A stretch of 29,435 nt of DNA. It comes from Elusimicrobiales bacterium. Lineage in GTDB: Bacteria > Elusimicrobiota > Elusimicrobia > Elusimicrobiales > UBA9959. Below, piece after piece: positions 6,001-9,000 of this stretch. The stretch covers positions 1-29,435 of the forward strand of contig JBMFKQ010000021.1 in NCBI GenBank assembly GCA_049972095.1, written 5' to 3'. A program made the position numbers. Each line of letters begins with the position of its first letter. Position 1 is the stretch's first letter.

Positions 6001-9000
6001 TTTTTAATAAGAGCCATAACTGCAGCAAAGCCACCTATTGTTCTTGTAGAGTTTTGTTTATCCCATTTTGCAGGTATCGATGAATACATCCCATGAACAT
6101 CGCTTGTGTGGTATATAGATATCTTTTCTGAATATATCCATGAATATAGAAAAAGTAATATTACAAAGGATAGCATTTTTTTCATATTACCCCCTTTTTT
6201 CTTTTTTTAAGAATGAATATTATAAATTCTGCTGCTGAAATCATCTCTCTATATATGTTATCATATTTGATAAAAAGGGGAAAATTGTCTTTTAATGTAG
6301 TTGAGATGCTTTTTCTTTCAAGCTCAAGATTTTTTTTTAGTTCAATGATGGATTTAATATGTGTTTTATCAGTAATTTCTTCAAACATCTCTATGTATCT
6401 TTTTATTTTTGGATTAGAGCTGTTGACTGTTAGTTTTTTTATATCATCAAGAGTTTTTTTTATTTCAGGTATTTTGGTCATAGAAAACTTTGCACTTTTA
6501 AGTGGGGTAAAGAGTTAAAGATGATGTTGCAGTTTATCTCTTTGAGAACTGGAACCTCTTTCTTGCCTTTGGTCTTCCTGGTTTCTTTCTTTCAACCATT
6601 CTTGGATCTCTTGTTAAAAATCCCGCTTTTTTCATTGCTTGACGAAAACTTTCTCCTAATTTTGATATTGCTCTTGCTATGCCATGTCTTATTGCTTGAG
6701 CCTGAGCTGAAATCCCACTTCCGCTGACATCGACATAACAATCAAACTTTTGATCCTTAACCAGATCAAGAGGTGAGGTTACTATATTTTTTAGCCTTGA
6801 AATATTGCCAAAATATACACCAAGCTCTTTTCCATTAACAGTTATTTTTCCACTTCCACTTGGAAAAAGCCTTACTTTTGCTCTCGCTGTTTTTCTTCTT
6901 CCTGTTGCATATATGAACTCCATAAATCACCTCTCATTTCTTAACAGGTATGGCTATGTCTATTTTTTCATCTTTGTAAAGTCTAAGTCTTTTTAGCCTT
7001 TTGTCTCTGAGTTTATTTTTATCAAGCATCCTCTTAACTGCAAGGTAAAGGACCTTTCTTGAATCTTTTGTCATCATATCCTTAAATGATATTATCCTTG
7101 CTCCTTTTGCATAACCTGAATGTGAGAAATAAAATTTCTCTTCCTCTTTATTTCCTGTTAACTTTATTTTGTCGGTGTTGGTTACAACTACGAAGTCACC
7201 ACAGTCTATGTGAGGTGTATAATAAGGTTTGTTTTTACCGCACAGTAGAGTTGCTATTTTTGAGGCCATTCTACCTAATATCTGACCTGTGGCGTCTATA
7301 ATATGCCACTTTCTATTTCTTTCAACAAATTCTTTCGTTGGCAAAGTAGTTTTTGTGTTCATAATATAAAGTATAGCAAATTTTGTATATTAAAAACAAA
7401 CTTTTTGCTAAAATAAAGGTTGGTAAATTTCTCTTAAAGAGAAAACTTTAGCGCTCATAGCTCAATGGATAGAGCAACGGCCTGCGAAGCCGTAGATTCG
7501 GGTTCGATTCCCGATGAGCGCATGCTGGTGCTAAGAAATGCGAATAGCATTTCGTGGGAATCGAAAGCCCGCAGCAAAACATATACAATTCAGTTTTGCG
7601 AGGGGCGGCCTGCGAAAAATTTTGCGGTGAGCAAAATTTATTTGTAGGCGATTCCCGATGAGCGCATGCTGGTGCTAAGAAATGCGAATAGCATTTCGTG
7701 GGAATCGAAAGCCCGCAGCAAAACATATACAATTCAGTTTTGCGAGGGGGGACTTGCGAAAAATTTTGCGGTGAGCAAAATTTATTTGTAGGCGATTCCC
7801 GATGAGCGCATATAAGGAGGGAGGATGAAAAACAATAGTGATATGAAAAAGGAGATAATAAAAAGGGTCGATAGAGAAGGTATAAGTTTTGTAAAGCTTT
7901 GCTTTGTTGATATTCTTGGACAGATAAAAGCCTTTACAATTACAAGAAGAGAACTTGAGCATGCCTTAAATGAAGGAATGGGTTTTGATGGTTCATCAAT
8001 AGAAGGATTTGCAAGAATCTATGAATCAGATCTTCTTTTAATGCCAGACCCAGAGACATTTAACATACTTCCTGAGGAGTTTGATGGCACTAAGACTGCA
8101 ATAATGTTTGGGGATATTCTCACACCTGAAGGTAAGCATTATGATGGTGATACGAGATATATCCTTAAGAAAAATCTTGATTATATGAAGAAGATGGGCT
8201 TTACTGATTTTATGGTTGGCCCGGAATTAGAGTATTTTTATTTTAAATCCTGTGAAAAGCCTGAGATAATTGATGAAGGAGGATATTTTGACTCAGTTCC
8301 AATAGATGAGGCAAGTGATTTAAGAAAAAAGACAATAGAGGTGCTTGACAAGATGGGGATACCGGTTGAGTATTCTCATCATGAGGTTGCTCCAAGTCAG
8401 CATGAAATAGATTTGAGATATAGCGATGCTATTACTATGGCTGACAGAGTGGTAATGTATAAGCTTGTTGTAAAACAGGTTGCTGCAAAAAATGGTGTCT
8501 ATGCAACATTTATGCCAAAGCCATTAAATGGTGTTAATGGAAGTGGCATGCATGTTCATCAATCTCTTTTTAAAAATGGCAAAAATATGTTTTTTGATAA
8601 AAATGATCCTTATTTTTTATCAAATCACGCAAAGTTCTATATTGCTGGGCTTATGCATTATGTGAGGCAGATATGTATAGTTACAAATCAGTGGGTTAAC
8701 TCATATAAGAGATTGGTGCCTGGTTATGAAGCACCTGTGTATATTGCATGGGCAAGAAGGAATAGATCAGTGTTGATTAGAGTTCCTCAACCAAAGTTGG
8801 GGAAAGAAAAGGCAACAAGAATTGAAGCAAGATTTCCAGATCCCGGTGCAAATCCCTATCTTTGTTTTGCTGTTATGCTTAGAGCTGGGTTAAAAGGTAT
8901 AGAAGATAATATGAAGATTAAAGAACCTGTTGAAGCAGATGTCTATGAAATGAGTGAGATAGAAAGAAAGGCGAATAAAATAGAAACCTTACCAGGCTCG

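Follow-up and report, generated by a model that had tools for sequence, protein, structure and literature searches.

A folded, protein-less cassette ending in a copy of the tRNA 3' end in the 3' flank of tRNA genes

In the window, a contig of 29,435 nucleotides from an Elusimicrobiales bacterium, two 144-nt units (7523-7666 and 7667-7810) directly adjoin the 3' end of the gene for tRNA-Arg(GCG) (7451-7522), and glnA comes next. Each unit joins a body of 127 nt to a 17-nt copy of the 3' end of the tRNA, and the cassette has an RNA-type fold on the tRNA-sense strand. It fits no RNA or mobile-element family that we found described in Rfam 15 or in the literature searched. The reading we favour, although we put it at somewhat less than an even chance, is a family of protein-less cassettes that are co-transcribed with their tRNA, reside only in the 3' flanks of tRNA and tmRNA genes and are gained and lost there, pairing with the T-loop deciding where they sit.

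All features of the locus lie on the plus strand. The tRNA, whose CCA is not encoded, was identified by ARAGORN and by Rfam model RF00005 (76.1 bits). Its positions 57-73, from G57 of the T-loop to the discriminator (7506-7522), are the template of the terminal copies and are preceded by G53-T54-T55-C56 (GTTC). Both units terminate in GATTCCCGATGAGCGCA (7650-7666 and 7794-7810), which equals tRNA positions 57-73, and the tRNA-end identity reaches 18 nt in BLAST. Tandem Repeats Finder (TRF) reported a period of 144, 2.1 copies and 98% matches for 7505-7811; three positions distinguish unit 2 (7750, 7752 and 7754) from unit 1 (7606, 7608 and 7610), and our covariance model R1 scores the units at 160.8 bits (unit 1) and 153.6 bits (unit 2). 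The open reading frame of glnA (glutamine synthetase, 7825-9162; Pfam Gln-synt_C 418.6 bits, Gln-synt_N 90.2 bits) has its ATG separated from unit 2 by a 14-nt spacer, which holds the Shine-Dalgarno-like AAGGAGGGAGG; glnA is a neighbour and is outside the cassette. Upstream of the tRNA a consensus scan found a promoter-like site, TTGGCA-16 nt-CATAAT (7338-7365, 10/12), a candidate start, judged from this sequence match, of a transcript that would comprise tRNA, cassette and glnA. No terminator-like site was found in 7310-8000.

Within the body, a linker leads to hairpin P0, which is followed by an inner strand of 10 nt and by a three-way junction of the helices P1, P2 and P3. In unit 1 the 5' linker (7523-7535) has the conserved CTAAG at its 3' end; in alignment A1 its first ~8 nt differ among loci, and CTAAG or CGAG is retained. 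Hairpin P0 (GAAATGC/GCATTTC, 7535-7553) was taken from the minimum free energy (MFE) structure and shows double changes at 6/6 pairs, with 98.7% of the cells paired in alignment A2. The inner strand GGGAATCGAA (7556-7565, in unit 2 7700-7709) matches tRNA positions 54-63 as their reverse complement and constitutes the 5' strand of the closing helix P1, where GGGAATCG (7556-7563) base-pairs with CGATTCCC (7649-7656). The 3' strand of P1 is provided by the first 7 nt of terminal copy 1 (7650-7666), which is identical to 7506-7522 in 17/17 positions. P2 (GCCC/GGGC), a conserved 3x3 internal loop GCA/GAG and hairpin P2a follow at 7567-7606 in the MFE structure, CCGCA and GAGG of this region being invariant in alignment A1 and P2a covarying at 6/6 pairs. 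Finally, the long hairpin P3 (7608-7649, loop GGTGA, also from the MFE structure) exhibits double changes at 9 of its 13 modelled pairs and 96.6% paired cells; in some relatives (L016, L037) its apical part is swapped for another hairpin.

A single unit has an MFE of -62.5 kcal/mol, corresponding to z = -6.3 (200 shuffles). The structure model is based on 16 units from 7 genomes and contains 36 pairs, of which 28 were obtained by RNAalifold and 8, belonging to P1, were added by hand. The 16 units have 92.7% of the cells paired and double changes at 22/36 pairs, and 56 matches have 93.5% and 29/36, respectively; in both alignments 0 of 500 shuffles reached the observed value and slid controls gave 38-51%. 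G.U and U.G combinations exceed A.C and C.A combinations (104 vs 11), indicating that the fold lies on the tRNA-sense strand. When tRNA and unit 1 are folded together (predicted MFE -99.4 kcal/mol) the tRNA is closed by the terminal copy and not by its genuine 3' end, and according to this model the spare tRNA end would be a real hazard. Two further pairing relations were inspected by eye and rejected: pairing of the linker with the 3' strand of the acceptor as a general helix of Elusimicrobiota (Gly 6/7, Arg 5 pairs, absent from Ser and Leu), and a P2 variant (GCCC or GUCC) that tracks the T-stem type. Several Patescibacteria copies do possess the linker-acceptor pairing, and in Patescibacteria copies (L139, L146, L149) a second inner strand also pairs with the 3' strand of the acceptor, resulting in a full minihelix-like end.

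R1 gave eight matches in this genome at E<=1, and all eight are located immediately 3' of a tRNA gene on the same strand, as the survey's finding had stated. They involve 7 of the 42 tRNA genes, fewer than the 8-9 that had been reported to carry the element or a remnant. The tandem arrangement of two 144-nt units between tRNA-Arg(GCG) and glnA was confirmed by sequence, ARAGORN and TRF, and every other tRNA-linked copy that had been named was recovered, namely those at Gly-UCC (C9), Ser-CGA (C33), Asn (C38), Ser-GGA (C26, at the contig end) and Gly-CCC (C15, cut after 52 nt); Ser-UGA (C4) is followed by a 30-nt remnant. We also found again the exact 17-nt terminal copy claimed for both Arg units and the Gly-UCC unit, the 9 contiguous nt left in the Asn unit (13/17 in an ungapped comparison), and the pairing of the inner strand with the tRNA-end copy. 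The multi-helix fold yielded the same counts of 36 pairs and 22 double changes. The description as a structured, tRNA-flanking element with a tRNA-end copy and a matched inner strand was reproduced independently in all its parts. The most similar full-length copies at different tRNAs of this genome are 92% alike and the cut Gly-CCC copy is identical to its best-matching copy in 52/52 nt, and no near-identical full-length copies were seen at two different tRNAs.

The inner strand is matched to the tRNA beside which it lies. In 35 of 41 tRNA-unit pairs it is the exact reverse complement of positions 57-63 of its own tRNA, as compared to a mean of 5.7 and a maximum of 15 in 2000 permutations, and the exact matches span 12 different 7-mers. 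The repeat begins at tRNA position 57 or 56 in 17/17 units examined, and of 59 first units from the loci examined, 45 have a terminal copy that is exact over 17/17 nt. Direct repeats of 17 nt thus lie on either side of the body, the tRNA gene itself being whole. After masking of the inner strand and the terminal copy, bodies sharing an inner-strand 7-mer were more similar to each other than others in one genome (0.738 vs 0.681, reached by 21/5000 permutations), the effect being weaker in a second genome (432/5000).

The family is known from at least 16 tRNA identities and also uses the flank of tmRNA genes. Its spread in Elusimicrobiota is patchy: it was found in no more than 7 of the 61 relatives and 3 of the 19 genera, one genome (G010) having 18 copies. 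A pattern scan of the genome collection placed 29 of 42 matches less than 120 nt 3' of a same-strand tRNA, and R1 matched none of the five matches from this collection that looked like chance. In metagenomes 31 of 38 matches adjoin a tRNA and three more are inner units of arrays. A stricter pattern detected two real Patescibacteria loci, and a search of their genomes with R1 gave 14 (in a Nomurabacteria genome) and 3 matches. The counts for other phyla, which had been given as 45 copies and 101 stretches, were reproduced only in part, with far fewer loci under our narrower pattern. Copies from distant phyla have a core identity of ~80%, and bodies diverge to about 80% between genera. Tandem arrays, cut copies and remnants persist, and other small elements are nested within cassettes. 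The second units of arrays share the locus-specific linker and P0 of the first unit, which points to local duplication.

Comparison of strains revealed filled and empty sites. At tRNA-Leu(GAG) the site is filled in L122 and empty in genome G027, the last ~300 nt upstream being 100% and 1274 nt downstream being 99.6% identical, and the same holds for tRNA-Ser(CGA), which is filled in L121 and empty in G027. Both differences amount to exactly 127 + 17 nt and are scarless. Exact units that are present or absent in near-identical strains support an element that comes and goes; the two polymorphic copies are just 81% alike, so the strain differences may be precise losses instead of insertions. Within one genus the tRNA-Leu(GAG) site is empty in some cases and otherwise contains either the cassette or another element built alike, and unrelated bodies having the same build were found at L031 and L053, suggesting that the build reflects a mode of arrival rather than one RNA function. 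As to an empty site for the Arg locus, this locus is absent from G001 of the same genus (60% complete), and tRNA, glnA and rplM are non-adjacent in genus g13. Contigs of four DNA runs offered no joint across a unit; these assemblies fragment at the repeats, and related units from other organisms occur in similar samples.

We searched carrier genomes for enzymes that might mobilise the cassette. RVT_1, representing the reverse transcriptase (RT) expected in the cell for a group II intron, a retron or a SINE-like element, was found in 0 of 7 element-bearing genomes, as compared to 17 of 61 overall. Y1_Tnp had no match in this genome (G000), in G010 or in G013. IS110 (PF01548), expected for a bridge (seek) RNA of IS110/IS1111, occurs in 1 of 5 carriers and TnpB (PF07282), expected for a TnpB/IscB omega RNA, in 0 of 5, the latter model having matched in control genomes. 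IS91 Y2 gave no match in carriers, and none in control genomes either, so that its absence is uninformative. The integrase search covered tyrosine recombinases (PF00589); it returned exactly two of them per genome in five genomes, which are Xer-like and about 300-350 aa long. Of five carriers, three have Cas1 and four have rve; no unit adjoins the rve genes of G000, G010, G019 and G027, and these genes have no sequence in common with the unit. The only tRNA near the rve genes examined is an unrelated tRNA-Val, 1.4 kb away (L094). None of the 80 pattern matches from genomes and metagenomes bears an ORF, and no match to the cassette came up among viral contigs or in the records of phages and plasmids. 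In summary, the presence of none of RT, Y1, IS110, TnpB, integrase, rve and Cas1 tracks the cassette family.

We also compared the cassette with known RNA families. Scanning 7350-7900 against Rfam 15 with cmscan at E<=10 retrieved the tRNA alone, everything else being far under the gathering scores: matches on the units are noise from miRNA models at 13-14 bits, and a weak DUF2693 match falls on the tRNA. There was no Rfam match to HDV, hatchet, pistol, twister or hammerhead ribozymes, a library that possibly does not include the theta model. By inspection, a hammerhead core was rejected, as the junction strands have 5, 1 and 0 nt instead of the needed 7, 3 and 1-2, and so was an HDV-like P1, as unit positions 1-7 have no complement; no partner for a P1 starting at unit position 1 was seen by eye. 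The cassette was not found described in the literature searched or in Rfam 15, the outcome that the survey had also reached, and the supplements of two preprints on genome language models might list the motif.

Structured non-coding parts that pair with an insertion target are known from the bridge RNA of IS110, the omega RNA of TnpB/IscB and the EBS-IBS pairing of group II introns. Like these guides, the cassette has a stretch complementary to its putative target, the tRNA, and, in a layout reminiscent of an omega RNA, a scaffold of ~127 nt precedes a 3' segment of 17 nt identical to that target, whose genomic counterpart follows the fixed GTTC. Unlike in these systems, however, the partner proteins are not shared by the carriers, and 10 nt separate the paired target (positions 54-63) from the junction downstream of it. 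The 3'ETS-leuZ of Escherichia coli is a short, unstructured sponge that originates from a tRNA precursor trailer at a single locus. The cassette RNA would likewise come off such a trailer, but is multi-copy, crosses phyla, folds over 144 nt and has a tRNA-end copy. Viral TLS and the skipping-rope, DUF2693-FD and salivarius-1 RNAs are described as tRNA mimics; like theirs, the 3' end of the cassette mirrors the acceptor/T side of tRNA, and Patescibacteria copies hold both strands of the mimicked end. The cassette has no Rfam match to these RNAs, and its mimicry is a literal copy of the end of the neighbouring gene.

Like MITEs and REP/REPIN sequences, the cassette is small and encodes no protein, occurs in multiple copies that are patchily distributed and in part nested or decayed, and is flanked by a duplication of its target. 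Terminal inverted repeats that stem from an insertion sequence (IS) are missing from the cassette, since its sole long-range inverted pair, inner strand and terminal copy, is derived from the target; the duplication of 17 nt always comprises the same part of a tRNA, a parent IS or RAYT is missing in several carriers, and the G.U-rich covariation points to RNA. An origin from IS200/IS605 (PATE) or REP/RAYT is likewise at odds with the absence of Y1 and with the existence of a 17-nt duplication. Attachment-site duplications and CIMEs resemble the cassette locus in the order of a whole tRNA gene, an insert and a partial tRNA copy from the T-loop to the 3' end, and in forming tandem arrays. A T-loop sublocation class of integration sites was reportedly recognised by Williams in 2002. 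The cassette deviates from them in that its insert is gene-less, only 127 nt long, folded in RNA fashion and tracked by no integrase, that it is found at many tRNA identities and that it has an additional inverted strand matched to the tRNA.

According to the reading we favour, the cassette would be transcribed together with the tRNA and would be freed by an RNase Z cut after the discriminator. It would be a selfish, non-autonomous element that moves as DNA with machinery supplied in trans, and pairing of inner strand and T-loop would select the host tRNA, be it as an insertion guide or in that only matched copies fold. Once established, helix P1 would sequester the spare tRNA end, so that the 5' half of the tRNA is left to the genuine 3' half without competition. 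Loss might proceed via slippage or recombination between the 17-nt repeats, and arrays might grow by the same route. Active homing to tRNA genes would be the mechanism, which the survey, too, had put forward as an inference. A simple staggered cut accounts for the 17-nt repeat, but not for an inner strand that matches each new tRNA. Models of template switching and of circle integration with the shared T-loop as homology were rejected on logic alone, as they all predict a chimeric first tRNA copy, which was never seen. Against a mobile cassette speaks that the carrier genomes searched yielded no mobilising enzyme, that no copy contains an ORF and that near-identical full-length copies were not seen at different tRNAs. 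A more far-reaching version, which we regard as rather unlikely, envisages mobile RNA genes of a new class whose insertion is programmed through base pairing. By way of the inner strand, the transcript of the cassette (or its folded single strand) would read the universally conserved T-loop and direct insertion behind position 73 with a 17-nt ruler, host enzymes or some further partner doing the work, and the released RNA, with its literal copy of an acceptor end and handled by RNase Z, the CCA-adding enzyme or even a synthetase, would represent a bacterial 'genomic tag'.

The same observations can be read as a resident, vertically inherited non-coding RNA of the host, which would arise from the tRNA trailer, be freed by tRNA-processing enzymes and, its 3' end mimicking the acceptor/T side of the tRNA beside it, act in tRNA metabolism, for instance as decoy, sponge or sensor for an enzyme or toxin that reads tRNA 3' ends, with gene conversion homogenising the copies. 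Strong purifying selection on the sense-strand fold argues for such an RNA, as does the terminal copy, which stays exact in most first units although the bodies diverge between genera. Moreover, the same tRNAs bear the cassette across genera, and linker variants tend to accompany the same tRNA, which fits old resident copies whose bodies were homogenised by gene conversion; variants of P0, P2a and P3 are reassorted among copies, as expected from that process, and the full minihelix-like end of the Patescibacteria copies is in line with a host RNA as well. We nevertheless consider a host RNA of this kind doubtful, since so few relatives and genera possess the cassette, near-identical strains have or lack it at two tRNAs, cut and remnant copies survive, small elements nest within it, and distant phyla carry it with a similar core.

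Alternatively, host recombination alone might spread the cassette, the tRNA gene on the left and the 17-nt copy on the right acting as homology arms and slippage between the repeats removing or duplicating units. DNA coming in from other strains or species could thereby put the cassette behind the same tRNA, through homologous or homology-facilitated recombination. This would explain why no enzyme tracks the family and why gain and loss concern an exact unit between direct repeats without a scar. As tRNA 3' ends are identical across carrier genera the arms would work between species, and as loss of the exact terminal repeat would stop the spread, the exactness of the repeat would be explained, too. 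It leaves unexplained, however, how at least 16 tRNA identities were reached and why there is a matched inner strand and a conserved RNA-type fold, and a 17-nt arm is probably very short for RecA-dependent exchange, rendering recombination alone an improbable explanation. Scars of integrase-borne islands or prophages were also considered, with the 17-nt repeat as attL/attR, a crossover in the T-loop and the body as a deletion remnant (cis-mobilisable). Integration into tRNA genes (PMC9897764) classically shows as a direct repeat that begins in the T-loop and extends to the 3' end of the tRNA, and the tandem arrays look like accretion at att sites. Yet the genomes encode only the two Xer-like tyrosine recombinases, no copy encloses genes, the body is a conserved, covarying, strand-specific fold common to several phyla, one body occupies 16 or more tRNA identities although an attP bears a single tRNA end, and the inner strand varies with the tRNA, all of which makes att scars very improbable.

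If the mobile reading is true, an unnamed conserved folded RNA accompanies as many as about 40% of the tRNA genes of certain bacteria with small genomes, in Elusimicrobiota as well as in the candidate phyla radiation. It would exemplify a new safe-site strategy, in which a selfish element finds the indispensable T-loop by pairing and duplicates the stretch that keeps the tRNA intact, and possibly a programmable insertion principle without a known transposase. Should it be a host RNA instead, the tRNA-matched end mimic would represent a tRNA-linked regulator of a new kind. Cassettes may also influence how tRNAs mature and how strongly genes downstream of them, here glnA, are expressed. In practice, cassettes break assemblies at tRNA genes and partial tRNA copies risk miscalls in annotation. 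Contigs of G027 end at a cassette.

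Directly after the discriminator of tRNA-Arg(GCG) (7451-7522, plus strand; 76.1 bits with the Rfam tRNA model), a gene that does not encode its CCA, begins a tandem repeat for which Tandem Repeats Finder gave a period of 144, 2.1 copies and 98% matches. It is made up of two head-to-tail units on the plus strand, unit 1 (7523-7666) and unit 2 (7667-7810), each closed by GATTCCCGATGAGCGCA, i.e. positions 57-73 of tRNA-Arg. The units differ at three positions only (7606, 7608 and 7610 versus 7750, 7752 and 7754), located in the 5' strand of a long hairpin, P3. Unit 1 has the variant GGGGCGGCCTGCG there, which is the family consensus and pairs better than GGGGGGACTTGCG of unit 2, the variant common to other copies of this genome. 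The tRNA gene is preceded by a promoter-like site (consensus match only) and, likewise upstream, by rplM on the opposite strand. Downstream, glnA (7825-9162, plus strand; Pfam Gln-synt_C, 418.6 bits) starts 14 bases past unit 2. As its ribosome-binding site (7811-7827) lies directly 3' of the last unit and a consensus scan detected no terminator-like site between the tRNA promoter region and glnA, the gene may be expressed from a tRNA-cassette transcript.

The fold predicted for a single unit (-62.5 kcal/mol, z = -6.3) consists of a 5' hairpin, P0, and a closing helix, P1, which encloses hairpin P3 as well as P2/P2a, a helix whose 3x3 internal loop is conserved. P1 is formed by an inner strand (7556-7563) and the beginning of the terminal tRNA copy (7649-7656). 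We aligned 16 units from 7 genomes with MAFFT, and RNAalifold found 28 pairs, with support from compensatory changes for 19. Once P1 had been entered by hand, 92.7% of the cells of the resulting 36 pairs were paired and 22 pairs showed changes on both sides, a result as high being reached in 0 of 500 shuffles; moving the 3' partner by 1-3 columns lowered pairing to 38-51%. The corresponding values for 56 matches from the collection scan, whose alignment is fitted to R1, our covariance model of the unit, and hence biased towards the structure, were 93.5% and 29 of 36 pairs, again with 0 of 500 shuffles and with slid controls at 39-51%. Paired cells contained 104 G.U and U.G versus 11 A.C and C.A combinations (88 versus 3 without P1). 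The fold therefore belongs to the sense strand of the tRNA, as expected of a co-transcribed RNA, a fold of the sense-strand DNA being formally possible as well. At L016 and L037/L039 (relative G027) a different hairpin of ~55 nt (CCCAGTGGAATAA...TTATTCCACGGGG) takes the place of the apical half of P3, so that this helix seems to need no more than its base.

The inner strand comprises the 10 nt ahead of a conserved junction AAG and equals tRNA positions 54-63 in reverse complement. Of these, the TTC at 54-56 is universal and positions 57-63 differ among tRNAs; an exact match to the latter was present in 35 of 41 distinct tRNA-unit pairs, covering 12 different 7-mers. Dealing the inner strands randomly among the tRNAs yielded 5.7 matches on average and 15 at most (2000 trials). 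Positions 64-65 mostly lack an inner-strand match, and a smaller table of tRNA-unit pairs gave the same picture. When inner strand and terminal copy were masked, bodies with a common 7-mer had a likeness of 0.738 versus 0.681 for the others in one genome (a difference reached in 21 of 5000 permutations), and another genome showed a weaker effect (432 of 5000), indicating that the T-loop type bears somewhat on which copies are related.

The repeated tRNA segment starts at position 57 or 56 in all 17 complete units, directly after the universal G53-T54-T55-C56. Among the 59 first units of all loci compared, the 17-nt copy was exact in 45, matched at 16 of 17 positions in three and at 15 of 17 in two; in the other nine it had decayed or was truncated where the locus stops (the latter in L026, L030, L126 and L129). 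Joint folding of tRNA-Arg and unit 1 resulted in a minimum free energy of -99.4 kcal/mol and in a structure different from cloverleaf plus unit, although this is a thermodynamic prediction that ignores tertiary structure and transcription order. There the terminal copy closes the 5' half of the tRNA, genuine positions 54-64 are bound by the inner strand and the genuine 3' end is displaced. On this model the spare tRNA end is a potential competitor of the genuine one, and P1 would leave the genuine tRNA intact by sequestering this competitor.

R1 and BLAST together detected eight matches in this genome, all directly 3' of a same-strand tRNA and involving 7 of the 42 tRNA genes. Besides the two Arg units there are copies behind the tRNAs Gly-UCC, Asn and Ser-CGA; the Gly-CCC copy is cut after 52 nt, the Ser-GGA copy lies at a contig end, and a 30-nt remnant follows Ser-UGA. 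Within the order, 7 of 61 genomes carry the family; they belong to 3 of 19 genera, and a single genome has as many as 18 BLAST matches. A same-strand tRNA lies just upstream in 26 of the 30 loci listed; L004 and L006 run into contig ends, and L021 and L029 were left out of inspection.

Scanning one genome per species with a 23-position pattern gave at least 40 stretches with at least 42 matches. Among the 42 matches listed, 33 had a same-strand tRNA upstream within the flank, 29 of them at less than 120 nt, and in one Elusimicrobiota genome the tRNA genes followed by the element number at least 16. Five matches in other phyla were taken for chance, lying in apparent coding regions and lacking an R1 match. 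The survey's finding had included a larger number of copies from other phyla; we recovered two loci in Patescibacteria (Nomurabacteria, 67 bits; Saccharibacteria, 91 bits), and a count of that size was not reproduced among the matches listed with the narrower pattern. R1 matched 14 times in this Nomurabacteria genome and three times in the Saccharibacteria genome, and ARAGORN called a tRNA or tmRNA on the same strand within 300 nt upstream of 11 of these 17 matches; the tRNA at L144 was recognized by eye only. Metagenome contigs yielded 38 matches to the same pattern, of which 31 adjoin a tRNA, three are inner units of arrays and four were judged by eye to be chance; viral contigs, phage records and plasmid records yielded none. 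Across all sets the host genes represent 16 amino-acid identities and tmRNA. As the Nomurabacteria genome shows (L139, L146, L147, L149, L150, L151), Patescibacteria copies often have a small hairpin immediately after the tRNA and, ahead of P0, another inverted stretch, which can pair with the acceptor 3' strand and a few trailer bases. The L150 copy follows tmRNA, and L147 and L151 follow ends without an ARAGORN tRNA call.

Metagenome contigs from a strain almost identical to G027 allowed filled and empty sites to be compared. The tRNA-Leu(GAG) site is filled by one unit in contig L122 and empty in G027 (L032). On the upstream side the two sequences agree at 100% over the last ~300 nt, and downstream identity restarts immediately past the terminal copy (99.6% over 1274 nt). 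The same contrast exists at tRNA-Ser(CGA) (L121 versus contig C33 of G027), and at a third site the G027 contigs terminate at the element. Both filled-versus-empty differences comprise exactly the 127-nt body and the 17-nt repeat, with no scar, as would result from insertion or precise deletion; since the two copies are only 81% alike, the sequences rather suggest that old copies were lost in G027. About 600-2000 nt upstream of tRNA-Leu(GAG), a ~1.4-kb patch in a gene shows 67-91% identity between L122 and L032 versus 99-100% elsewhere and looks like a separate recombination tract that leaves the tRNA untouched. G027 contigs C39 and C2 (L134, L135) stop exactly at the edges of the unit that follows tRNA-Glu(TTC), showing that cassettes break short-read assemblies.

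Within genus g10 three states of the tRNA-Leu(GAG) site occur: G019 has a family element there, G010 (L031) an unrelated one that is built the same way, and G027 none. The G010 element has the inner strand GAAGGGAC and the terminal copy GTCCCTTCCCGCGCA, corresponding to tRNA positions 59-73; after this copy its own 5' part restarts, and part of the locus is masked (N). In arrays the second unit has the same locus-specific linker and the same P0 as the first, which implies local growth, the 17-nt repeats being the presumed sites of exchange or slippage.

No mover of the element was found among the enzyme families searched. RVT_1 was present in 17 of 61 relatives and in none of the seven carriers, Y1_Tnp had no match in the source genome, G010 and G013, and among five carriers we found IS110 in one, TnpB in none, rve in four and Cas1 in three, the rve genes having no association with units. 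None of 80 pattern matches from genomes and metagenomes was an ORF-bearing version. Spread through host recombination alone, with the tRNA and its terminal copy as homology arms, strikes us as improbable. Each of five carriers has exactly two tyrosine recombinases, both Xer-sized, and we give very little credence to the units being integrase scars; one study (PMC9897764) explains partial tRNA copies by integrating elements 9-23 kb long and by CRISPR activity. Rfam 15 contains no family like the unit, and full-text literature searches returned no description of it. The main texts, as distinct from the supplements, of two genome-language-model preprints on prokaryotic non-coding elements report no tRNA-linked family, and a preprint on bacterial tRNA mimics covers other families in its accessible part.

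The exclusive position, the presence or absence of single units, the patchy distribution across phyla, the decayed and nested copies and the unrelated bodies of the same build argue for small arriving elements rather than one host RNA gene. A resident trailer RNA that mimics the tRNA end and is kept uniform through gene conversion is a doubtful alternative, less so than host recombination. The conserved, strand-specific fold implies that its transcript, or else a folded sense strand, is of importance to the element. Two cuts staggered by 17 bp, with the conserved T-loop as anchor, would produce the duplication and an intact tRNA; as they leave the matched inner strand unexplained, we favor the view that a copy can establish itself only if it pairs with the T-loop segment, whether because the pairing guides insertion or because only matched copies might fold and be harmless. 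Taken whole, our leading, still tentative, reading is that tRNA ends are reached by a class of small elements which depend on this pairing to become established.

Some units harbor further elements. In a G019-like genome a different, GC-rich element of ~115 nt, usually in two tandem copies, interrupts the inner strand between GGG and ACTCGAA, the inverted T-loop/T-stem boundary (L081:504-746, the same DNA as L002; also L077, L036, L060, L058, L053, L067, L072 and L078). It usually resides in the second unit, and in the first at L036 and L060. R1 recognizes it with scores of about 60 bits (L081:546-678, L077:546-677), which makes it a paralogue of the unit; the partner of its 'inner strand' GCTGTYC is GGACAGC at the 5' end of this element itself, not a tRNA copy. 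At L053 (minus strand) two tandem copies of a 56-nt mini-element, each closed by 23-24 nt copied from the tRNA end, complete T-arm included, lie between tRNA-Gly(CCC) and a normal family unit, indicating that a spare tRNA end can itself take further elements. At L063/L137 (Saccharibacteria, tRNA-Ser-GCT) an insert of ~55 nt, flanked by the 9-nt direct repeat CTCCCGCTT, splits the terminal tRNA copy.
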